A model generated the notes under the pieces. That model did not search any database, had not been told where the DNA came from, and worked only from the letters and a program-made list of their open reading frames with translations. From contig CAWCYI010000004.1 in NCBI GenBank assembly GCA_963799845.1, positions 1,344,001-1,408,000 of the forward strand: DNA of 64,000 nt. The letters run 5' to 3'. Numbering within the stretch: the first letter of the stretch is position 1; every line of letters starts with the position of its first letter. The DNA comes from an uncultured Nitrososphaerota archaeon. GTDB taxonomy: Archaea > Thermoproteota > Nitrososphaeria > Nitrososphaerales > CADDZS01. The translations under genes were made by a program, and so were the position numbers. Below are positions 4,051 through 39,665 of the stretch, piece after piece.

Positions 4051-4126
4051 CTAATTTGTAAATTTATGCGGATCCCACATCTCACACTCGGGATTTAATA
4101 GTAAATTAGAGATGTTGGGATTTACC
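4051..4126 (+). repeat. REP-like repeat family 1, degenerate copy with an extra inverted half
   Basis: ATCCCACATCTCACACTCGGGATTTAATAGTAAATT resembles 29326-29349; ATCCCACATCTC/GAGATGTTGGGAT hairpin. Confidence 0.65.
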
Positions 4127-6016: not shown

Positions 6017-6223
6017 GACTTGGAAGTAGCCACTCGGAAACAGAACGTATGAATATTTGAAAGATATCTGATAATATAGCGATAACCAGAGCAACTCAGG
6101 TGGAATTTTTCTCATTTTCTTCGTGCATTCTCTGGCCGCGCCCAGCAAAAGGACTCTAGGTCTGGGTGTTACTAGTGATTCCTATGACTATCCTTGAAAA
6201 GACAGAATGTAAAATCGAAGGAT

Positions 6224-7264
6224 ATGTATCAACAAAATGAGGTAATCTACATAGGAGCTGACGTTCACTAAAGAGAAACTCAGCTAGCAATCTTTGAACC
6301 AAGAGGCACTCTTCTGCAGGAGGAGAGAATTCTCACAAAGGATCTTCAAAGCTTCATTCAGTCTCTGCCGGCGAAGGAGAAACATCTAGCTCTAGAATCT
6401 GTTGGATTCATCTACCCGTTGTACGATAAGCTCAGACAGATTCCAAGGTGCGAGGTTGCAGTAGCAAATCCGAAGAGGCTGAGACGAGATTCCGGTTCGA
6501 AGCAAAAACATGACAGAATAGATGCAAAACTACTTGGGGATCAAATCAGGACCAACTACCTCAAGAGATCCTACATGCCTGAAGAAGAAACTAGGGAGAA
6601 GAGGTTTCTCATCAACGACAGGGTGAAGTACGGCCTCAGGAGGGCGGAGCTGAGAGGCTCGATACGATGGCTTCTGAAGAGGAGGGGAATCGTCGTTGAT
6701 AGTCCGTTTAGTGCAGAGGGAAGAAGGAAGCTCAAAGAAGAGATTTCCCTCCAGGAGATAGATATCAGATTGCAGGAACTCGAACTCGTGGAATCAATCA
6801 CTGAGAAGCTCGACCCGCAGATTTCTCTGATCGTCGCGCATGATGAAAAGGCAAAACTCATGGACACGTTGCCTGGCGTTGCACCCTACACGGCTCTTTT
6901 TCTTTCATCGGCTCTTGACAACATCGATAGATTCCCCGACTCGAAACATGCGTGCGCCTACTTGGGTCTCGTTCCTTCCCTGCACCAGTCAGGTGATGCA
7001 TCTTTCACAGGTCACATAACGAAGGATGGAAACAAGTTTCTCCGGAGGAATCTGATCGAGTGTGCGAGAGTAGCTGTCAGAAAGGATCCTCGCCTCAAAG
7101 AGTTCTATACCAAGTTAAGGCGTACGAGGGGTGAAAGGAAAGCTTTGATCGCTGTGGCAAGGAAGATGGTTTCGTACGCCTATTGGATGCTGAAGAGGAA
7201 TCGAACCTACGAAGAGCTGAGCTCCTTGGACGAATTTATGGAGACAACAATCATCTCCGTCTAG
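6224..7264 (+). pseudogene. IS110 transposase/recombinase with in-frame TAA at codon 16
   Basis: MYQQNEVIYIGADVH*RETQL in frame with ORF 6419-7264; KHDRIDA, AYLGLVPSLHQSG, GHITKDGN, IAVARK motifs. Confidence 0.85.
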
Positions 7265-7345
7265 TGAATAGGGAACGCGTTTCGTAGAGGCGAATTGTAA
7301 GGAAAATGGGGACCTCCCCGAATAGTTGAATGCCAGCCTCTCCAG
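7222..7345 (+). ncRNA. Putative bridge RNA/seekRNA of the IS110 element
   Basis: Two stem/internal-loop/hairpin modules; guides GAATTTA and CTAGT match the reconstructed target, ATAGTTGA matches the circle junction. Confidence 0.6.
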
Positions 7346-7434
7346 AAAAAACGCTCGTGCAATTCCCAGCTAAACTTAGATAGTCATAGTTAAATTCATG
7401 TCAGAGTCCGGTATTGTGTACAAATTTGCTCAGT

Positions 7435-8567: not shown

Positions 8568-10616
8568 CTACATAGTAAAAGTCCACGGAGCTGCGCTGCC
8601 GATATAGTGGTCGAGGAAGTATACCTCAGGGTCGGGCCGTCCCGTTCTTCCGTCTATCCTTGACGGCTGGTTCCACACCAGTCCCTGCTCAACGATGTTG
8701 TCCCACTCTTTCTTTGCGACTTCGAGCCACTTCCTGTCTCCAATCCGGTACCTGTATCCTGCCAGCCCGAAGACAAGGCGGGGCCACGAAGAGTACGACT
8801 GAACGCTCAGCTCCCAGATCTTCCCGTTTTCGTTAACGAGGTTCGGAGTGGCGTACTTGGATGCCTGCGCGTTCACCTTGTACTGCCACTCAAAGGCGGA
8901 ATCAATCTTATCTTTGGGTGCAATTGATTCGAGCTCAAGCACGTGCATCCACCACTCGCCAGTGAGCTGAGCCATGAACACGTATCCCGTTGGATCCGGA
9001 TCACCCCGCCATGCTTCGAAGTACCTTCCGTTGTAGAGATCTAGAAATGAACTTCTAGCCTTGGTCAAGAGTGCATTGTACCACTCTTGGTCCTTCGGAT
9101 TGTTCAAGATCTTTGCCGTTTCTCTTAGGGCGGTCAGGCATGCTACGAAAACAGATCCACAATAGCTGTCCTTTCCCTTGATTGCAGTTGCATCAAACCC
9201 CGCATCCGCCTGCCCCTCCGCATCTGGAATCCCGTCACCATCCTTGTCCTGCTTCAGGTCCCACTGCAGAGTCTTCAACATCGCGGGATACATCTCTCGG
9301 AGGAACTGGACGTCCTTCGTAAACTTGTAGTACCGGAACACGAGTAAGATGAATGACGGGCCCAGGTCCTTCCATCCCGGAGGCGAGGTCGTTCCGTCGG
9401 TTGCATGATCAAACGAGTTCAGTCCCAGGTCATGGGGAATGTACCCGTCCGGTCTCGCAGCTTTTGCAAGCAACCCGAGGAAGGTTTTCTCGAGCTGGGG
9501 GAACATGATAAGATGGGGGAGGGATCCGCCCTCGTGGCAAAATCCGGCAATTGTTCCGAGCATCGGGTCATTTTTGGTGGCCTCAAAAATTGCAAACCTC
9601 CCCTTTTCATCGAGCCATGTCGCCGCGAATAGTGTGTATGTAGTGTTGATTATGGCATCCTTCAACCAGTCCGGCAGGTCATTTTTTATGAGAGTTTTGT
9701 GCCACGCGCGGGATTGATCTCTGAGCCGGTCGTAGTTGGAGAGAAAGTGGCGCGCGAACTGTTCAGATCCGGTAAACTTGTTGTGGTAGTAGTGCCCGTA
9801 GGGATACAGCACGCAGCGCCCAGTAAAGTACCATGAAAAGACGTACTTCACTTCTTGCTCCTCCCGGTCATACCTGCAGACGATCACACCGGCAGGATCG
9901 TCCCACTGCCCTAAGACTTCATGAGGATCGTCGGTGGGGAGCGTTCCTCCCTTTGCAATTGACAGCCAGGGTTCCTCATTTTCAAATATGTACTTCCACA
10001 CTCTCTGGGAGATCGCGACACCCGGCGGCACGTTGAGGTTGTACTGCACGATTTTCTGAGACGGATTCTCCGCGATGAGGCACAGGTCTCCTTTCGCGCC
10101 GTCGTAATCGTTACACTGCCGGTTTACAAACGCGATACCACCCTCGACTGATTCATTCACCCTTCCGATCAGGTTCGTCCCGGTAATGTTTGAGACCGAG
10201 ACTGCGATCCTGCCGCTCTTGCTTCCCTTGACCCGCACGGATATTCCGAGAGCCGGCATCGAAGACTCGTCCAGGTTCCCCGGAATGAGTGACGAGAAGA
10301 CCTCCATCGTCGCTTCGATAGTTCCCTTCTTGGCTTTTAGAGTCGCAAACGGAAATTCTCCCCTGTACGACAGTTCGTCCGGTTCGTAATCGGAGAAGTT
10401 TTTCATTGGAAGAAATTTTTCAATGAAGAATGGCGCTCCGTCATCCGGAACCACAAACACGTGAAAAGCACGCATCTTCGGAGTCGGGCTCCCCCAGTTG
10501 TGTAAAATCGTAAGATTGGACATCTTGCCTTCGTTATCGATCTCTACCTTACCGGTTCCGATTCCGCCAAAGGGAACGCCGCCCTCTAGATTTGCGTTGG
10601 GTCCATATTCTACCAT
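8568..10616 (-). CDS. GH116 beta-glycosidase, paralogue 2
   Basis: GVPFGGIGTG, PHDLG, WKDLGP, DKDGDGIPD..GQADAGFD; collinear with 508-2553. Confidence 0.88.
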   Translation of the reverse strand: MVEYGPNANLEGGVPFGGIGTGKVEIDNEGKMSNLTILHNWGSPTPKMRAFHVFVVPDDGAPFFIEKFLPMKNFSDYEPDELSYRGEFPFATLKAKKGTIEATMEVFSSLIPGNLDESSMPALGISVRVKGSKSGRIAVSVSNITGTNLIGRVNESVEGGIAFVNRQCNDYDGAKGDLCLIAENPSQKIVQYNLNVPPGVAISQRVWKYIFENEEPWLSIAKGGTLPTDDPHEVLGQWDDPAGVIVCRYDREEQEVKYVFSWYFTGRCVLYPYGHYYHNKFTGSEQFARHFLSNYDRLRDQSRAWHKTLIKNDLPDWLKDAIINTTYTLFAATWLDEKGRFAIFEATKNDPMLGTIAGFCHEGGSLPHLIMFPQLEKTFLGLLAKAARPDGYIPHDLGLNSFDHATDGTTSPPGWKDLGPSFILLVFRYYKFTKDVQFLREMYPAMLKTLQWDLKQDKDGDGIPDAEGQADAGFDATAIKGKDSYCGSVFVACLTALRETAKILNNPKDQEWYNALLTKARSSFLDLYNGRYFEAWRGDPDPTGYVFMAQLTGEWWMHVLELESIAPKDKIDSAFEWQYKVNAQASKYATPNLVNENGKIWELSVQSYSSWPRLVFGLAGYRYRIGDRKWLEVAKKEWDNIVEQGLVWNQPSRIDGRTGRPDPEVYFLDHYIGSAAPWTFTM

Positions 10617-27560: not shown

Positions 27561-27953
27561 TTGCAAAAATGGAAAAGCTCTATTACCGCGGAGGACGGAG
27601 TCGCTTTTGTGACCGCAACGATTTGCTACTTTGACTCCCCTCCAAAAAACGAATTCTTTGTATTCTTCAAAGGGACATTGCTACCAATACTAGTGCGATA
27701 TGGTGCTCCATGTCTTGCTACTTTTGTCACCGAATCCAGCCCCAATAACTATCCAAGACTAGCAGTGAGAGAAGGAGAATACGTGTTTGTCTGGTTCAGC
27801 TTATTTACAAACGGAACATCTTACGAGAATCACATTCGAGCTTTGGAAGAAAGTTCTGACTGGTTAAAGATCCAGGTTCAACTTAAGGAATTCTTGATCA
27901 AGCCGGTAGAGATCTTGAAGCTTTCACCGACTCCGCGTTCAAAGCTAATCTAA
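27561..27953 (+). pseudogene. NIPSNAP-like protein, C-terminal half only
   Basis: FVTESSPNNYPRLAVREGEYVFVWF, LSPTPRS; N-terminal half appears to be missing. Confidence 0.55.
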
Positions 27954-27962
27954 CTCTAATGC

Positions 27963-27997
27963 TATTAGTAAATACGTGCGCGAATCCCGTACCTCGC
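27963..27997 (+). repeat. REP-like repeat family 1, degenerate copy
   Basis: TATTAGTAAATACGTGCGCGAATCCCGTACCTCGC. Confidence 0.5.
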
Positions 27998-28004
27998 ATG
28001 ATCT

Positions 28005-28283
28005 TTACGTTTCATCTTTCAAAAATTCTATGAATTGACGTGTATTTTTACTAGTTAATTGGTGCGGAAGTCCCACATTCCGCGTACGAGATTTACTAGT
28101 AAGACCAAATCTTTGCGTCAGTATTTTGTGATTTCCGCGATTAACCAATCTTGTTCTTCGTGAGACAGTTATTGTTACTGTTTCGCCAATATTTACCAAT
28201 TGACGTGAAAAGTGTTGTAGTGCTCGTCTCACTTCACTCGAGGAGAGATTAGTTCTTTCTTCATACCAGTATCCGAATCCCAT
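28005..28283 (-). CDS. Small AT-rich hypothetical ORF reading through a repeat copy
   Basis: ATG ORF; 3' part overlaps the repeat. Confidence 0.3.
   Translation of the reverse strand: MGFGYWYEERTNLSSSEVRRALQHFSRQLVNIGETVTITVSRRTRLVNRGNHKILTQRFGLTSKSRTRNVGLPHQLTSKNTRQFIEFLKDET
28045..28102 (+). repeat. REP-like repeat family 1, full-length copy
   Basis: TTTTTACTAGTTAATTGG...TCCCACATTCCGC...GATTTACTAGTAA. Confidence 0.8.
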
Positions 28284-28339
28284 ACATAACTTGAATTAAT
28301 CAGCAACCTAAAACGGTCGCACATTGATTTTCAAACGAC

Positions 28340-29113
28340 CTAGGGACGTTTCTTTATTCCGGCAGTACGGCCACCGTCTACGGCTATCGTGACGCCGGTC
28401 ACATATGACGCCTCGTCAGAAGCCAGGAAAGCTGCTACGGCCGCAATCTCTTTTGGTTCAGCAAGTCTCCCCATAGGCACTATACCTATCCATGCCTCCC
28501 TTTCCGCAGGAGTCATTGAAGCCTCCATGAATGATTTGAGCAGCGGAGTTGCAGTACCTCCGGGACAGATGCAATTTGCCCTAACATTCTTGGAGCCAAA
28601 GTCCTGGGCGACCGATTTTGTCAGAGCTATGATCCCGGCCTTTGATACTTCATAGGCGGTCTGGCTCACGGGCCCAGCTTCAATTCCCGAAGCGGAACCT
28701 GTGTTGATGATGGATCCGCCGCCACCGTTAATCATAACGGGAATTGCATACTTGCACCCAAGGAAGTAACTCTTCAGGTTTACGCGCATCACGCTGTCCC
28801 AATCTTCAAGAGATGTTTCCACGCAAGTACCTACGGGATTGATTCCGACATTGTTCATAAGAATATCGAGCTTCCCGTACTTCTGAACTGTATCAGCGAT
28901 CATATGATCCACTTCTCTGACCGATGTTACATCAGTATGAACATATCCCGCTCTTTTACCATGATTTGTAATATCTTCCACTACCTTGAGCCCAGCTTCA
29001 TCATTGATGTCAGCAATTACCACCGTCGCACCCTCGACAGCAAATTTGTGTGCGCAGGCTGTGCCGATTCCCGAAGATCCGCCAGTGATGATTGCTATTT
29101 TGCCAGTTAACAT
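28340..29113 (-). CDS. SDR family oxidoreductase
   Basis: TGGSSGIG, NNVG, YEVSK, VDGG. Confidence 0.92.
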   Translation of the reverse strand: MLTGKIAIITGGSSGIGTACAHKFAVEGATVVIADINDEAGLKVVEDITNHGKRAGYVHTDVTSVREVDHMIADTVQKYGKLDILMNNVGINPVGTCVETSLEDWDSVMRVNLKSYFLGCKYAIPVMINGGGGSIINTGSASGIEAGPVSQTAYEVSKAGIIALTKSVAQDFGSKNVRANCICPGGTATPLLKSFMEASMTPAEREAWIGIVPMGRLAEPKEIAAVAAFLASDEASYVTGVTIAVDGGRTAGIKKRP

Positions 29114-29300
29114 GATGTCTGTGCATTACGCGGCTCTTTAAAAAATAAATCCCGTGTAAAGCCCGATTCCGTGAAGAGTCTTCGTTCCGACCCAAGATTC
29201 ACTGCTTTCTTGAAAAGACTGGACTCGAAGCTTAGTAAAGGGGTATCAAAACGCTCGATTGCTCCAAAATGCGAACCTTTGCTCTTTGCCTATTTGCACA

Positions 29301-29350
29301 TTTTTACTAGTAAATTGGGGTTCAAATCCCACATCTCGTACTCGGGATTA
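29301..29350 (+). repeat. REP-like repeat family 1 copy
   Basis: 34 bp identical to 30962-30995. Confidence 0.9.
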
Positions 29351-29523
29351 CGGCAAACCAGAATGGCAAAGACCATTAGTCATGAATCTTCCAATAAATA
29401 TCGCTACTGCGATGTGATCATGGTACCGAGTTTAATACCCTAAAATATCCACGTAAGCAACGGATAGATCCCTAGAATGGAGTTTTACATCCGAAATTCA
29501 AAATTTGAAGAGATAAGATTTCG

Positions 29524-29832
29524 ATGATGAACGAAGGTTATAGGCTATGCTCGGGATGCAATAGGGAGATAATGGTCTCATCCAGAGGTTTGTTTCTACC
29601 TCATAAAAACAAGAAAAAGAAAATTGTTTGTCCTATGTCTAGCAAAGCGCCTAATTATGACATATGTGATTTATGCGGAAAGAAAATTGCAAATCCTGAC
29701 AATAAAACAAGATATTGTTCAGAAGACTGTGAGAAAAGAGATTCTCGTCGTTCCTTAATGCCTGTTAATCAGGAGATCTCCAAAAGAAAAATCAAGGCGT
29801 TAAAATTTTCAAACCCTCTTTACTTTGACTGA
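29524..29832 (+). CDS. Small Cys-rich (double zinc-finger) hypothetical protein
   Basis: CSGC..H..C and CDLC..YCSEDC; AT-rich. Confidence 0.55.
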   Translation: MMNEGYRLCSGCNREIMVSSRGLFLPHKNKKKKIVCPMSSKAPNYDICDLCGKKIANPDNKTRYCSEDCEKRDSRRSLMPVNQEISKRKIKALKFSNPLYFD

Positions 29833-29881
29833 GGGCTAAAGTCGTGGAGTAGGCCGGATTCTAACCTACTTCGATTCGATA

Positions 29882-29935
29882 TTTTACCAGTAAATTCGCG
29901 CTCTAATTTAGCCAAAAGTGGCGGGATTAGTAAAA
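29882..29935 (+). repeat. REP-like repeat family 1, degenerate copy
   Basis: TTTTACCAGTAAATTC ... CGGGATTAGTAAAA. Confidence 0.5.
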
Positions 29936-30219
29936 AGTGCTCTGAACTCGATATACGAAGTATCACGTTCGCTTGCTTCTTAGTCTTAAAATCGAGTCCC
30001 TAGATAATCGGACTTAGCGCCGCAGACTTTCTGGCTCGTACCTTCGATAGGCTTCGTAGTTTCGACGCTGGGAGTTAGTACGGCATGAATCTTACTCGCT
30101 TGAAGAAGTGCAGAATATCCTCGCTTGAGGAATTTCAGTAGTCAATATTCTTCTCTTAAAGCAGCGAAGGATATAATCAAAAAAATTGAAGAAGAGGCTC
30201 CAGCAAAGCCGGTGATATT

Positions 30220-30798
30220 ATGAGAAAAATTTTCTTGTATATGACAATGACCTTCGATGGTTGCATTTCAGCACCTAATGGGGAACTTGACTGGTTTGAC
30301 CCATCAAAAGCAGACAAAGAGATGCATGATGACATAATAGGGATAGTTAGCAGTGCTGACAGCTGGATGATGGGATATCCGACAGGTCCAGGCCTGATAG
30401 CTTACTGGAAAAATGTTGAGAACGAGGGAAGGGCTGACAAATGGGAAATGGAAATTGCCACGGCGGTAAACAAGTTACGAATAATCATAATTTCAAACAA
30501 ACCAGAAAAGTCCGTAAATAGTGCAGAACTTATCGTAGCAAAAAATGACAAGGAGCTAGTCGATGCGGTCATGAAAATAAAACAGAGCAACGGGGGCGAC
30601 ATATACGTACCTGGTGGTGTGCGCACCGCGCAGAACTTCTCAAGGGTTGGACTGATAGATGAATACATCATAATGGTGCATCCGGTCGCAATAGGAGAAG
30701 GCAAGCACCTGTTTACGAACGAGAAAAAACTAGAGCTGATGAACGTAAAGCCGTACAAATCTGGGGTAGTGCAGATGCGCTACCGTCCTCGAAGCTAG
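30220..30798 (+). CDS. RibD C-terminal/dihydrofolate reductase family protein
   Basis: MTFDG.I..P.G.LDW, GG, LIDEY...VHP...GEG..LF. Confidence 0.88.
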   Translation: MRKIFLYMTMTFDGCISAPNGELDWFDPSKADKEMHDDIIGIVSSADSWMMGYPTGPGLIAYWKNVENEGRADKWEMEIATAVNKLRIIIISNKPEKSVNSAELIVAKNDKELVDAVMKIKQSNGGDIYVPGGVRTAQNFSRVGLIDEYIIMVHPVAIGEGKHLFTNEKKLELMNVKPYKSGVVQMRYRPRS

Positions 30799-30961
30799 TT
30801 ACCTTGTTGCAGTGTTCGCAACCGCAACCAATCCACTTCGGCATCATGTTCAACAGAGCGGAGGCATCTCCCATGAAGACCTGTCCGATAAAGATCGGTA
30901 GTGGCGTGTATCGATAGTCCGCTATTGAGCACATCTCTTGAAGATTTACAATCGGGTTGTA

Positions 30962-31020
30962 TTTTTACTAGTAAATTGGGGTTCAAATCCCACATTCCGC
31001 CTATGGGATTTACTAGTAAA
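30962..31020 (+). repeat. REP-like repeat family 1, best copy
   Basis: Two perfect TTTACTAGTAAA palindromes (30964-30975, 31009-31020) around an AAATCCCA/TGGGATTT hairpin. Confidence 0.92.
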
Positions 31021-31152
31021 ACCAAAGGTGTAGCTGAAGTTGTTCACACTGTCAGTAAACCAGGCGCAGACATCGCTTTAGGTTCTCTGCAGATACTAAC
31101 TTCTCTCCCTGTCTCAGTGTGCGGTCTGCGGAACATGATGGTCAGATAAAGC

Positions 31153-31888
31153 TTACTTCCACTTTGTCAATATCTCTTCTCGTTTGAAAGTGGATTTACT
31201 CACAAAAAAGAGAAGCAAATCAAAAAGCAGCACAACAACAGAAATGATCAGAAGAGTATCGATGTCGAGCGAAATAATCCCTTCCACCCCAGCAAGGAAG
31301 ACCCCCATGAATGGAATGAACATGAGGCTCCCGATCTGGTTTGCGCCTCGAACATCGTTGACCCGAGCCGATACAATTACTCCCAGTTCAATACTTAAGA
31401 TCGCTGCAAGCGGGGCTATCAGGATAAGCATCACCCCGGAATTCCAATTTGGGAAATAATAGTACGACAACAAATTGTAGGTCATGTAATCCGTTACTGC
31501 CATGAAGACAGAAGCTGCCGCCCAAATTGAAAGCATGGGTGGCAGAAATGCAGCGATGCCTTTTCCCAAGAGGATTTCATCATCCGTAATCGGAGCTGCA
31601 AGTAACGGTTCCAGGCTCTTCTCAATTTTTTCGCCCACAATGCTGTACGCCGCGATCGAGCTGGGAACGATTGCTGCCAAAACAACATAGAAGTAAGTAA
31701 GTGATTCGAGACCCAGTTGATAATTCGAGGAGATCCCCGAAGATTGCGCTATATCGCTCTTAACTACGAGTAAGAAACCGATTGACAGGAAGAAGGGAAA
31801 CAAAATTGTATAAAGAATAATACTCTTCTTTCTCCGGATCACTTTCAACTCCTTTTTCAGCTATCTTCCAAGGCATCCACATGCTCAT
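31153..31888 (-). CDS. ABC-2 type permease (frameshift near 5' end)
   Basis: SIVGEKIEKSLEPLLAAP..EILLGK; ATG overlaps the ATPase stop. Confidence 0.85.
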
Positions 31889-32818
31889 CATGCATCCTCC
31901 TTCACGAGCTTGAGATAAGCATCTTCCAAGGTACTGCCTAACACTGTGACAGTCTGGATGCGGCCTCCCGCCCCAATGATTGCGTTCACTATGTCAGGAT
32001 TCTCTTCCTCTGGATTTTCTACATCAATCGTTACCTTGTTGCCTTCTTTCGCGACGTTTTTGACCTTCAATTTTCTCAGTGAATTCAGAATCGTTTCGCT
32101 CACCTGCTTCAATTGTATTACCGTCTTTCTTCCGTGTATAGATCGTTCAAGTTCCTCCGGGGTGCCTATCGCCATGAGCTTGGTATTCAAAATGCCAATC
32201 CTATCGCAGACTCTCTGCGCCTCGTCGAGGTTGTGGGTGTTTAGAAAAATGGTCTTCTTCTCCTTCTTCAGCTCAAGGATGAATTCCCTCACCGTCTTTG
32301 CAGACTCGGGGTCGAGATTCGCTGTGGGCTCATCCATGAAAATTATCTCGGGGTCATGGATCAGGGCGCGAGCTATCGCTAGCTTTTGCTTCATCCCCTT
32401 CGAGAACGTCCCCGCTAGAGCATCTTTCTTTTCCCATAGTCCGAACAGCTTGAGGAAGTACTCGTTGCGCTCTTTCCGCTGGGAATCGGTCCGCCTGTAC
32501 AGAATTCCATAGTAGTCCAAATTCTCGTAAGCGGTCAGTGACTCGTAAAGACCCACGTTATCCGGAACGAGCCCGATGATCTTTCTGATCTTCATGGCAT
32601 CTTGCAATCGGCCAATTTCATAATCGCCAATCCTGGCGCCTCCGCTCGTCTTGGATATCAGGCAACAAAGCATCCTCACCGTGGTCGTCTTACCCGCTCC
32701 ATTTGGTCCTAGAAAGCCGAAGATTTCTCCTTCGTTCACTTTGAAAGTTACGGAATCAACCGCAGTTAGATTACCGAACTTCTTTGTGAGGTTCTCAGTC
32801 TCGATTATGATAACCCAC
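31888..32818 (-). CDS. ABC transporter ATP-binding protein
   Basis: GPNGAGKT, FSKGMKQK, MDEP; frame extends upstream to IETENLTKKFG. Confidence 0.92.
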
Positions 32819-33204
32819 CGCGATATTTCTCGGAACTAACAAAATCATCCCTTTTTTCTGGATTGCTATTGAAAGTGGCGAAAAGGAACGATGCCTGAAA
32901 AGCGGGTCGGTGAGGCTGGCAAGGATAACGTAGTGAACGGTAGTGAAAAAAGTCACGATTTCGGCGAGCTGACTCCGTAAATCGCTAGGATATTGCCTGA
33001 ACGCTGCCATGTCCGTGTGCTTAGGTAGGAACATCCACATCTGCATAGACCTTTCGTTTCACAGATCGAGGATTCATTCGAAAAGGATTTTGCGCGGACC
33101 TACTGCTAGTAGAGGGCAATCCAATCACAGACATAAAGTCAACTCGGAATATTGTGAATGTTTGGAGGTTAGGCATCCCAGTCCACGAGGATAGATTAGG
33201 TGAA

Positions 33205-33254
33205 TTTTTTACTAGTAAATCGGGGTTCAAATCCCACATTCCGCGCATGGAATC
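33205..33254 (+). repeat. REP-like repeat family 1 copy
   Basis: TTTTTTACTAGTAAATCGGGGTTCAAATCCCACATTCCGC. Confidence 0.9.
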
Positions 33255-33289
33255 ATTCGTACTTTGAATTTACTCCCATGCCGTTCTGG

Positions 33290-37630: not shown

Positions 37631-39665
37631 TTACTGATCCTGCCCGTTCACGAATGTTACCGTGTTGAAGATCACGGTCTCCGTCTGTCCCGTGAATAAA
37701 GGATCCAGATAGGCGTTGGCCACCACATTCTTGTCCCACACGACCGAGCCCCCTCCCAGCGGAAGTTTGATCGTGCCGAGCCATATGTAGGGAGCGTCGT
37801 TGTATATCTGCTTCTGAGCTGCGGTACAGAGCGAGATCAACGTTGAATTGGAAGCTCCATTGGTCCATGAATTGACGCACTGCTGTACAGTGGGGTTGCT
37901 ATAGATCGCATAATTGCCGGCCGCGCTCTGGTTGCTCACAAAGAGTATCCACGAGTCCGCGGGGGTTGGCTCGTCCGGCGCCCAAGTTTCCGATCCAAAC
38001 CACGTCATCTGGGCTACCTGCTGAGCAACCGGCACCGCGCCAGAATAAGCTCCTGCCGCAACATATGGTAGCGTGTATTCGCTCGAAGGCGTCACCTCGA
38101 CATTTATGTTGAGCCCGATCTGCGACAGATCGCCCTGAATTATCTCGGCGGCAGAAACGCAAAAGTTGCAACCTGCTTCTACCCTGAACTCGATGGTGGG
38201 AAGGTTTGCCGTGTTTATGCTCGCGTTCTTCAAAATCTGTTTTGCGAGCGTCACGTTATACTGGTAGGGTGGAAGGTTTCCAAGGTCGTAGTACTGCGAC
38301 TGCGAAGGATACTCGGGACCCATGAATGGTACCAGTCCGTTGAAGAAGACTTCCTGCGAAATGTTGGAGTAATTAATCGCGTGGACTATTGCCTCTCTAA
38401 CGGCAGTAATGTTCGTGGGATACCTGAGAGTATTCATCGTTGCTCCAACAAACGCCATCGAGTTGTTCGGCAGGACGGAATAGCCGTATTTGGCTGGATT
38501 AGCTTGAATCAGCGGCCAATCTTCCGTTTCGATTCCCGCAATCTGGACTGTTCCCGAAGCTAGGTCTGCATATCTCGCGACATCGTCCGTCTTTGCATAA
38601 ATGATGACGTTTTTTACGTGACCGGGATCAAGATAGGGATTTGCTTGGATTTGAGCCGGAGTTAGATTCTTACCCCAATACGTAGGATTTTGAGTAAATT
38701 CCGCATAGGCATTTTCCGCTACTCCTGACACCATGTATGGCCCAGTTCCAGGAGCGGGATTGAGGTTGAAGTAAGGGTTGACTGCGGTCGGTGTACCATA
38801 ACCCCCGTGGTCCAAAACAAATTGGGTGTCGTACAAGAGACCCGTGAAAACGACCAATGCCAATGGGAACCACTGGAAAGGAGCCGCGAGTTGGAATACA
38901 ATCTGGTTCGCATTGGGGGCGTAAATTGGCCAAGAGCTGTTGCTCATTAGGGCGATGCCCTGCGCGGAGGGAGTTGTTACGCTGCTCTGGTTCAGTAACG
39001 CAAGCGTTGCGGGCCCGAAGTCAACCGAGGACATGTTGAAGACATCGTAAGTCTGTCATCCAGTTGCTGCTGTTGCCTGAGAGATAATAGTCGGCGTACA
39101 TCTCGCCCCAGACTTGGTAGGAGTTGAATGGATCTCCGTTGGAGAACGTGGCGTTCCTCAGATTAAATGTGTACGTTTCTCCATTGGCAGAAACGGTCCA
39201 GTTTGACGCGAGCATTGGCTCGGCAACGATCGCCCCGGTTGAGTATTCCAGCGAGGCGTTATCATCGACGAGAGACTGGTACACGGTGTCGGTTTGCCAG
39301 TTCGGATAGGGTTGTCCGACGTTCAGGAGCTGGCTAAGCTCACCGAATGGCCAGGTGAGATCATCGATTGACAATGTTTGGACGATTGATCCGCTGCTCG
39401 AACTTGAGGTGGAGGAGGAAGAAGACGAAGATGATGACGACGAACTCGATGATGAGCTGGAAGAAGTTGGAGGAGTAATTGAAGAGGACGATGAAGACTG
39501 GGAGGTGGAAGATTGCGACGATGAAGACGAGGTGGTGCTGGAACCTCGCGTAGTGGCATAGGCGATACCCCCTACGGCAGCGATGATAATCACAATTATG
39601 ACTGCTATTGCAGCAGTTCTCGAAATGGCGGACACATTTTTTCTGGCAGGCAAAAAGCGATCCAA
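37631..39665 (-). CDS. ABC peptide/sugar substrate-binding protein, family 5 (frameshift near 39035)
   Basis: N-terminal TM + Ser-rich linker, YTFNLR..FSNGDP, GTGPY, VREAI..AIN. Confidence 0.85.

Follow-up and report, generated by a model that had tools for sequence, protein, structure and literature searches.

Palindrome-flanked repeats between accessory genes of a Nitrososphaerales archaeon as probable attachment sites of tRNA-targeting integrative elements

A family of short palindromic repeats separates small accessory genes in the stretch of DNA analyzed here, 64,000 nucleotides (the window) of an uncultured Nitrososphaerales archaeon (GenBank assembly GCA_963799845.1, contig CAWCYI010000004.1, positions 1,344,001 to 1,408,000, i.e., C4:1344001-1408000 in the contig numbering used below). 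The source is a metagenome-assembled genome (MAG) of 4.6 Mb in 9 contigs, with 47% G+C and an estimated completeness of 86.7% (G000). Judging from sequence comparisons, these repeats are probably (we put it at about 0.6) the attachment (att) sites of integrative elements whose Xer-like tyrosine integrase targets the 3' ends of tRNA genes. In kind they are att-type sites forming accretion or cassette arrays; they are neither repetitive extragenic palindromes (REPs) of the sort that goes with a REP-associated tyrosine transposase (RAYT) nor the attC sites of integrons, and probably not miniature inverted-repeat transposable elements (MITEs).

The window copies at 28045, 29301, 30962 and 33205 belong to one family of direct repeats. 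A profile seeded with them (nhmmer, two iterations) matched the source genome 43 times at E<=1e-3 in the first round and 60 times at the same threshold after iteration, 42 of the latter at E<=1e-6. The hallmark of the family is a 12-bp palindrome, TTTACTAGTAAA (hereafter, P), with 40 exact occurrences in the genome against 0 to 4 for each of 29 other palindromes of the same half-site composition. The repeat family that had been proposed from the window alone is therefore real. A full copy reads P, T, core, ACAT, a few bases that include CGC, a tail with GGGA as its last bases and a second P; a long variant has ~17 additional bases ahead of the right P. The core resembles the 3' end of a tRNA and comes in two main subtypes, A, which matches the T-arm of class II tRNAs and has a T-stem/T-loop-like GGTTCAAATCCCAC followed by a 7-nt acceptor-like stretch, and B (GTGCGGGGGTCCCAC), which is devoid of the T-loop. 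Conservation peaks in the left P and in TCCC, the core being as strongly conserved as P, and is lowest in the 6 to 8 bases that correspond to the tRNA T-loop, the most variable part of the site, between highly conserved blocks. P has a 6-bp palindromic center and weakly inverted outer flanks. In addition, 75 to 110 nt upstream of many copies there is another module (module 1), made up of a P-like palindrome and a match to the T-loop and 3' T-stem of tRNA-Gly(CCC), which in some copies covers the whole 3' end of that tRNA (CGAATCCCGTACCTCGCA).

Not all copies are complete. Among 59 classified matches, 23 are P-core-P, 20 keep just the left P, 10 keep just the right P and 6 lack both. Several half sites are broken at the center of P: the right P is cut after ..TTTAC in at least four copies without remnants of insertion sequences (ISs), and the left P before TAAAT in at least two. 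There are also solo P sites with outer palindromic flanks and no core (C6:1021888 and C7:25875). Half sites without the left P at C4:927479, C6:911800, C6:1035220, C6:1746648 and on contig C299 of the relative G004 have in common a different short left flank (..TTTCCATG or similar) immediately ahead of GTGCGGGGGTCCCAC, so that another partner arm may recur at these sites. Folded as single-stranded DNA, the unit forms a long hairpin in which the two P copies pair to close the stem (z -4.0 to -6.4). The inner pairing differs between subtypes A and B, however, which makes a conserved hairpin unlikely to be the functional form. A tRNA-like minihelix or RNA gene was rejected, as there is no 5' acceptor strand and the inner pairing changes with the core subtype; no Rfam family reached the gathering score anywhere in the window, and ARAGORN found no tRNA there.

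The link with tRNA genes and integrases is seen in the relatives, which are short-read MAGs of 110 to 470 contigs each. On contig C18 of G011, an intact class II tRNA gene is followed, 2 nt on, by P, an open reading frame (ORF) of ~200 aa, a 333-aa tyrosine integrase and cargo (V4R, HTH_10 and MFS genes); at the far end, ~7.1 kb from the tRNA, a P-like palindrome precedes a tRNA fragment, 17 nt of which are also present in the intact tRNA. Contig C98 of G003 shows the same order at a different tRNA (tRNA, P-like palindrome, 174-aa ORF, 320-aa integrase), and one metagenome contig (L067) starts in the same way as these two. The distance from tRNA to P is 1 to 4 nt in all of them, and P stands at the tRNA/integrase junction in 3/3 loci of this integrase type with the tRNA side covered (relatives only). 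A fourth locus (L066) covers only the end of the ORF and the integrase; the metagenome scan with the G011 integrase gave two short contigs, one of them useful. The Xer-like tyrosine integrases of the relatives (320 to 333 aa) score 91 to 100 bits with Pfam Phage_integrase and 136 to 168 bits with the NCBIfam archaeal XerA model, under its cut-off of 220, and match PHROG integrases. The ORF of ~170 to 200 aa between P and integrase in G011:C18 (27.7-28.3k), G003:C98 (L063:9105-9629) and L067 is conserved, has no match in Pfam, NCBIfam or PHROG and is a candidate for the role of directionality factor or DNA-binding partner.

In an alignment of site 30962 with the relatives' attL and attR, attR matched the window repeat in its left half and attL in its right half. 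With attL being the tRNA end plus P, and attR being P plus the tRNA fragment, attP must consist of P, a tRNA-like core and P, which is the layout of the window repeat. The copies of the same class II tRNA in the source genome (C3:18004 and C8:15718), as well as its tRNA-Gly, have no P downstream, which indicates that P is brought in by the element rather than belonging to the tRNA genes. A different integrase of 426 aa that adjoins a tRNA on contig C112 of G011 is not accompanied by P. For tRNA-Gly(CCC), three configurations are seen: bare in the source genome (C7:113855), gene plus short spacer plus P on contig C291 of G003, and, in both G000 and G002, copies of its 3' end that are joined to P and carry one of two different right flanks. 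These were not assigned firmly to attP or attR because the flank matches are short (4 to 10 nt). ARAGORN called 9 tRNAs in the source genome, a number that rose to 35 once introns were allowed for; almost all of the tRNA genes have an intron, and several of the calls that imply introns of at least ~1 kb seem to be spurious. An integrase fragment at C4:2115513, 45 nt from a P-like site, was discarded as coincidence or decay, since its paralogous fragments (three in the source genome, two in relatives) have no P nearby.

The sites are far from randomly distributed. After removing one C8 copy inside a 7.8-kb duplicate of C7 and merging tandem modules, 53 sites remained, with 21 adjacent pairs less than 5 kb apart against 2.9 expected (maximum of 9 in 2000 random placements). 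Co-orientation was found in 20 of these 21 pairs, and in 16 of the 17 that are within 3 kb. In total, more than 50 sites fall into at least eight clusters (C4 927-935k, the window, C4 1743-1749k, C4 1919-1973k, C6 899-1035k, C6 1591k, C6 1747k and C7 12-26k). Orientation switches within clusters between 1952k and 1957k of C4 and between 947k and 961k of C6; at both places a run of minus sites meets a run of plus sites, with the arrays directed outward from an IS-rich stretch in the middle. Such switches could have arisen by inversion, between sites or between copies of an IS, or by the growth of two arrays from one origin. The genome is very rich in ISs, with one 1.13-kb element in at least 17 near-identical copies and several others of 1.1 to 1.7 kb, many of them inside repeat clusters and one only 27 nt from the site at C6:967997. 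C-terminal Cas1-like fragments of 175 and 196 aa were found near repeat sites or inside an integrase-bearing element (C6:1748380-1748904, equivalent to L023:5380-5904, and G003:C98, L063:2816-3406) and could be what is left of casposons or of some other element that uses Cas1.

Nearly all matches are intergenic (56/60), and 27 of these 56 lie in convergent gaps, which make up 19% of all gaps. The segments between sites measure 0.6 to 3 kb and often hold one gene or gene fragment, with mixed gene direction. The genes are of small accessory types, and the same families recur across clusters (short-chain dehydrogenases, RibD_C, ABC-2 pairs, glyoxalases, DUF1801, TetR, MFS and methyltransferases). 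Several are fragmentary, e.g., a truncated ABC ATPase at C4:734594.

In the window, the sites, the segments between them and the one IS of interest are as follows.

4058..4105, plus strand: half site core-tail-P (O-P class), left palindrome cut at its center (before TAAAT), right P-like palindrome at 4094-4105; nhmmer E 4.7e-7
6176..7390, plus strand: IS110-family IS, apparently at the center of a degenerate P, flanks 6167-6175 (..TTACTAG) and 7391 on (TAAATTCATG..), ends by eye
27964..27999, plus strand: module 1, attR-like hybrid of element arm and tRNA end; nhmmer E 6e-5
28045..28103, plus strand: full site P-core-tail-P, P at 28047-28058 and 28092-28103; nhmmer E 4.7e-13; single-stranded DNA fold z -4.0
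28340..29113, minus strand: segment 1 gene, short-chain dehydrogenase (Pfam adh_short_C2, 4e-69)
29301..29351, plus strand: P-core-tail site, right palindrome cut at its center (after ..GGGATTAC); nhmmer E 2.8e-13; left end of the zinc-ribbon segment
29524..29832, plus strand: segment 2 gene, small zinc-ribbon protein (weak Pfam match only)
29881..29935, plus strand: degenerate site, P with one mismatch at 29883-29894 and eroded core; nhmmer not significant; right boundary of the zinc-ribbon segment
30220..30798, plus strand: segment 3 gene, RibD_C-like reductase (Pfam RibD_C, 1.4e-17)
30962..31020, plus strand: full site P-core-tail-P with T-loop-like core, P at 30964-30975 and 31009-31020; nhmmer E 3e-14; fold z -4.7
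31153..32739, minus strand: segment 4 genes, ABC-2 permease and ABC ATPase pair (Pfam)
33205..33273, plus strand: long-tail site, right palindrome cut at its center and abutting ~9 nt that match the terminal bases of the element IS-C; nhmmer E 7e-12

The original prediction had listed further copies, and they fared differently. The one placed at 4051 was recovered by the profile (4058-4100, E 4.7e-7), the left half of its left palindrome being missing. The match at 27963 is significant (E 6e-5), yet it is a different module, with a P-like palindrome and a tRNA-Gly(CCC) 3' end; an 18-mer within it is identical to the tRNA-Gly(CCC) of the source genome (C7:113855-113947), and window positions 27607-27990 duplicate, with 99% identity, the 3' part of a longer C7 gene. 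At 29882 there is a degenerate P with 1 mismatch and a weak right end, although E<=0.1 was not reached, whereas 4641 gave no profile match even at E<=10. The AAATCCC/GGGATTT hairpin, proposed for the whole family, holds for the subtype with the T-loop-like core only; the main single-strand stem is P:P. The junction of site 33205 recurs at C6:904964, beside a full IS-C. Elsewhere in the window, two paralogous GH116 glycoside hydrolase genes (508-2550 and 8568-10613, minus strand, 8 kb apart, 75% identical over 75 nt) flank the IS110 element and a GNAT gene, and a gene for a family-5 solute-binding protein (37631-39662) appears to be divided between two ORFs of 466 and 213 aa that overlap, which may reflect a frameshifted pseudogene or an assembly error.

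The comparison with relatives, which had been suggested as a check for changes exactly at the repeats, showed homology blocks that end at sites. One example is the zinc-ribbon unit. Window positions 29302-29884 (site plus gene) are 93% identical in G003:C333, the homology starting at site 29301, and positions 29469-29907 are 93% identical in G002:C177; beyond the unit both contigs carry unrelated DNA, and the homology stops at the edges of P. Within the unit, similarity is far lower in the P-core-tail part than elsewhere, so the true junction may lie inside the site. G006 shares the zinc-ribbon gene only (88%), and no repeat is found nearby. On contig C253 of G003, two repeats join a block 95% identical to C6:479-480k with a block 97% identical to C4:1938-1939k. 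On contig C291 of the same genome, the order is tRNA-Gly, P, a Gly-like fragment, ~400 nt and a luciferase-like gene (96%), with one P in common to the tRNA and the fragment; in the source genome this gene closes the C4:927-935k array on its right side, directly behind a Gly-type module. Likewise, the RibD_C homologue on contig C28 of G002 lies between two repeats, inverted relative to them, and duplicated segments within the source genome start or end at repeats. Parts of the stretch are contained in six public runs, of which four were compared, all as Logan contigs that end at repeats; no excision was seen, and contigs of this kind bear on it neither way. The single apparent joint, from 27990 to 30954, which could be taken for a deletion, turned out to be the paralogous composite site at C7:22188-22262.

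P is also a specific landing site of IS110-family insertion sequences. The source genome has 11 Transposase_20 matches belonging to at least three element types. One of them, IS-C (~1.2 kb), is inserted between TTTACTAG and TAAA of a P site in 3/3 copies, with AG on both sides. A two-base core is what is expected of IS110-type insertion. All copies of IS-C seen are degenerate (ORFs of 126 to 137 aa). Neither IS-A (4 copies) nor IS-B (2 copies) is inserted at P. The window IS110, whose ORF at 6419-7261 matches Pfam Transposase_20 (5.8e-23) and part of the DEDD_Tnp_IS110 domain, has, by eye, P-like half sites on both flanks and the same insertion point as IS-C; the empty site that had been read from its flanks (TTACTAG and TAAATTCATG.., element at ~6176-7390) is thus plausible by eye. 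The IS-C copy in the P site at C4:1954607-1957756, outside the window, carries a nested insert of ~1.95 kb that encodes a group II intron reverse transcriptase/maturase (RVT_1 and GIIM, 398 aa). IS110-family elements are known to target repeated recombination sites or REPs, and for this reason their targeting of P does not decide between the possible explanations.

A looser pattern found the sites in 9 of the 13 genomes of the GTDB family (8 of the 12 relatives plus G000), with 20 matches in G000, 1 to 4 in the others and none in the controls. Counts in the relatives are probably too low because they are short-read MAGs; genome G001 enters the tallies only. The sequence is kept across two genera, down to identical 25-mers, and groups of three co-oriented sites are present on contigs C53 of G011 and C61 of G007. 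Beyond the family, a strict pattern run on one genome per species (185,579 species) matched 10 stretches, including six in records titled as Nitrososphaerales or Thaumarchaeota MAGs, one record titled Bathyarchaeota with two co-oriented copies and one 5-kb contig titled Dormiibacterota. The profile did not confirm two bacterial matches of this pattern; its confirmed occurrences are limited to records of the Nitrososphaerales type and to two short records labeled otherwise. Scans of viral contigs with two patterns gave 2 and 6 stretches that were rejected, the former being unrelated AT-rich DNA and the latter unrelated repeats without a profile match.

How such arrays might arise can be outlined from the site types. 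A full copy has the layout of attP, or of the joint left between two elements integrated in tandem at one site; copies with the left P only resemble attR and those with the right P only attL. The mix of site types is what would be expected if full sites recombined with partners that have no P. Serial integration into existing sites, together with decay and recombination between sites, could lead to co-oriented arrays, in which each joint separates a short accessory segment that may then be excised, moved or lost as a unit. The integrase would be supplied in trans, in the manner of cis-mobilizable elements or integron cassettes. The site architecture, the tRNA identity, P at tRNA/integrase junctions in relatives, the clustering and co-orientation, the homology breaks and the IS110 insertions at P are direct observations; we infer integrase action on these sites, the position of strand crossover and the independent movement of single segments. 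A good deal of decay of larger elements is favored because segment genes are truncated.

Several observations weigh against att sites of tRNA-targeting elements as the explanation. The integrase of the relatives and its neighboring ORF were searched for in the source genome (tblastn and genome search) and gave nothing better than 22% identity to a broken gene. Pfam Phage_integrase had three weak matches there, the other integrase fragments are broken and no intact integrase was found in an assembly that is 86.7% complete, in line with the original statement, limited to the window, that no cognate integrase is present. Pfam Resolvase (serine recombinases) had no match in the genome either. None of its arrays begins at an intact tRNA, and none of its tRNA acceptor stems matches the commonest core, all 30 candidates being known tRNAs or chance. 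Since core B has lost the T-loop, its tRNA origin rests on intermediates. Several half sites break at the center of P, a pattern that crossover in the core explains no better, and perhaps less well, than crossover at P or events mediated by IS110. Mixed gene direction and truncated segment genes fit decay and rearrangement as well as active capture, and the ORFs behind the gene-context statistics are crude (longest ORFs, not from a gene finder). For the element of G011, five family genomes (four g2 and one g3, none close) gave paralogue-level matches of 65 to 78% in place of an empty site. Finally, among the isolated copies (C4:735k and C6:1591k), for which the relatives are divergent (64 to 80%), only the C4:735k gap was comparable. 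Its counterpart in G004 is an ordinary intergenic gap with no att-like sequence, and the 1.2 kb that are extra in the source genome correspond to a truncated ABC ATPase and sites.

Part of this evidence would suit a model in which P itself is the crossover site of an Xer/dif-like recombinase (6-bp center ACTAGT, A/T-rich arms) or of IS110-type bridge recombinases, with the core as a passenger and the segments as pdif-like modules. The recurrent breaks at the center of P without IS remnants (at least four after ..TTTAC, at least two before TAAAT), the solo P sites (C6:1021888 and C7:25875), the single P common to tRNA-Gly and the Gly-like fragment in G003 and the position of the three IS-C copies and, by eye, of the window IS110 at the TTTACTAG/TAAA point would all follow from it, and a palindromic center would permit inversion, fitting the mixed gene direction and the inverted RibD_C homologue of G002. 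We nevertheless consider it unlikely, if still a live alternative. The element of G011 has at its ends a direct repeat of 17 nt that lies within the tRNA, a classical sign of crossover in a tRNA-derived core; the core is as strongly conserved as P, and the copies of IS-C seen are all degenerate. A selfish REP/MITE-like element that transposes into intergenic DNA with a preference for gene 3' ends, later homologous recombination being responsible for the breaks in synteny, had been the first suggestion of the original prediction. It would account for a short unit with inverted-repeat ends in ~60, nearly all intergenic, copies, for the enrichment in convergent gaps (27/56 against 19%), for the strong single-strand hairpin (z -4 to -6.4), for the isolated copy in a gap that is empty in G004 and, given that IS110 elements target REPs, for the IS110 insertions at P. 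However, it leaves us with a good deal to explain away, namely clustering seven-fold above chance, co-orientation of 20/21 close pairs, half copies in two classes that match attL and attR and are not random truncations, P at tRNA/integrase junctions in relatives and identical 25-mers across two genera, which would be unexpected of a neutral burst.

Neither could a transposition partner for such an element be found. There is no RAYT-type gene; the only two Y1_Tnp (Y1/HUH) genes of the source genome (C4:750843 and C6:729242), unlike the linked HUH/RAYT gene that had been proposed as a check, are more than 14 kb from any repeat and adjoin stretches matching a ~1.2-kb multi-copy element, likely an IS200/605-type unit. 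Inverted P copies could count as terminal repeats, but none of the three IS110 types whose ends were inspected has such ends, and no target-site duplication was apparent in the flanks inspected, of which no systematic scan was made. With copies confined to clusters, no autonomous partner found, no RAYT and no such duplication apparent, a REP/MITE-like origin appears unlikely. The remaining alternative is a regulatory or terminator element: P would serve a dimeric transcription factor as its operator, or the whole unit would be a bidirectional terminator useful to its neighbors. In its favor are the perfect symmetry of the 12-bp palindrome, which has T-runs on each of its outer sides, the convergent gaps and the recurring kinds of neighbors (TetR regulators, ABC-2 exporters, short-chain dehydrogenase, glyoxalase). 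It seems very improbable to us, as it accounts neither for the tRNA-derived core and the half sites nor for sites that keep one orientation whatever the gene direction, homology that breaks at them and their position at tRNA/integrase junctions; nor is there any Rfam match in the window.

Going beyond att sites in decaying arrays, it is possible, and we propose it tentatively, that this is a gene-cassette system unrelated to integrons, in which single-gene segments with palindrome-flanked, tRNA-derived, attP-like sites are captured, excised and reshuffled by an Xer-like integrase supplied in trans by an element elsewhere in the population, the variable T-loop-equivalent stretch acting as the overlap that sets the pairing of sites. 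The original idea of recombination sites of a cassette-like capture system survives in kind, through orientation, clustering, homology breaks and P at tRNA/integrase junctions, but not as a homologue of attC or pdif, given the tRNA-derived core and the Xer-like integrase. If the cassette system were real, soil Thaumarchaeota would have an integron-like platform built from tRNA attachment sites and targeted by IS110. The large-genome, non-ammonia-oxidizing soil Thaumarchaeota are little studied, also in how they gain accessory genes. Should the att-site explanation be correct, much of the flexible genome of this lineage would consist of short segments bounded by one recognizable, searchable site, which could serve as a marker for mobile DNA in fragmentary MAGs, and tandem accretion at tRNA att sites would have been carried as far as integron-like arrays. 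It would also provide a defined integrase/site pair from a mesophilic archaeon that can be tested at the bench and might perhaps become a genetic tool. The IS110 insertions at P are a natural archaeal example of elements of this type homing to a recombination site.

Among known systems, REPs and bacterial interspersed mosaic elements (BIMEs) with RAYT have in common with these repeats that they are short, palindromic and intergenic, often at gene 3' ends and sometimes in tandem pairs, and that they are targets of the IS110 family. Here, in contrast, there is no RAYT, the copies are clustered and co-oriented instead of dispersed, the core is tRNA-derived and there are two defined kinds of half sites. 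Xer/dif-type sites are 28 bp long, with two 11-bp arms around a 6-bp center, and pdif modules are bounded by sites of alternating orientation; P has a 6-bp palindromic center, and the orientation here is uniform. IS110/IS1111-type elements that target integron recombination sites are also known, and attC has R''/L''-L'/R' boxes with a conserved crossover box of the GTTRRRY type. No such box is present in any of the copies inspected, it is the sequence and not the structure that is conserved, and genes go in either direction. Moreover, the source genome has no IntI, and the integrases of the relatives reach at most 50.8 bits on integron-integrase models with cut-offs of 265 to 435. On the other hand, integron arrays and clusters of attC sites lacking integrases (CALINs), archaeal integrons included, resemble the arrays described here, as far as the passages of PMC9668308 go, in their co-oriented sites less than 4 kb apart, mostly single accessory genes and imperfect hairpins, and in that most arrays have no integrase nearby.

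The closest parallels come from integrative elements. A survey of integrated elements in 21 thaumarchaeal genomes (Krupovic et al. 2019, PMC6563490), in the passages we draw on, describes elements of 2.6 to 98 kb, each with its integrase, 57% of those placed being integrated into tRNA genes with a median att of 17 bp. They belong to the same phylum and use tyrosine integrases, and the identities of 17 to 18 nt found here fit a short att, although the lineages surveyed there are others. Those passages also mention archaeal arrays that arise by re-use of one integration site; in them and in the passages of PMC9668308 we found no description of a multi-copy, palindrome-flanked att module or of arrays of single-gene segments. 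Streptococcal islands of integrative conjugative and integrative mobilizable elements (ICEs and IMEs) show tandem accretion at tRNA genes and cis-mobilizable elements (CIMEs), according to the part of PMC5704250 used here. As in these islands, the archaeal arrays have att sites derived from tRNA 3' ends, attP-like joints, integrase-less segments that keep their att sites and co-orientation. Compared with that same account, they differ in the segments of 0.6 to 3 kb, in more than 50 sites spread over at least eight clusters and not one island, in having no array start at an intact tRNA and no integrase in the assembly, and in the two identical 12-bp palindromes per site. What is unusual here is the number of sites (>50), the shortness of the segments, the identical palindrome pair and the missing integrase. 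By up to three of five defining features, the sites belong with the att sites of tRNA-targeting integrative elements, and the arrays come closest to tandem accretion together with cis-mobilizable remnants.

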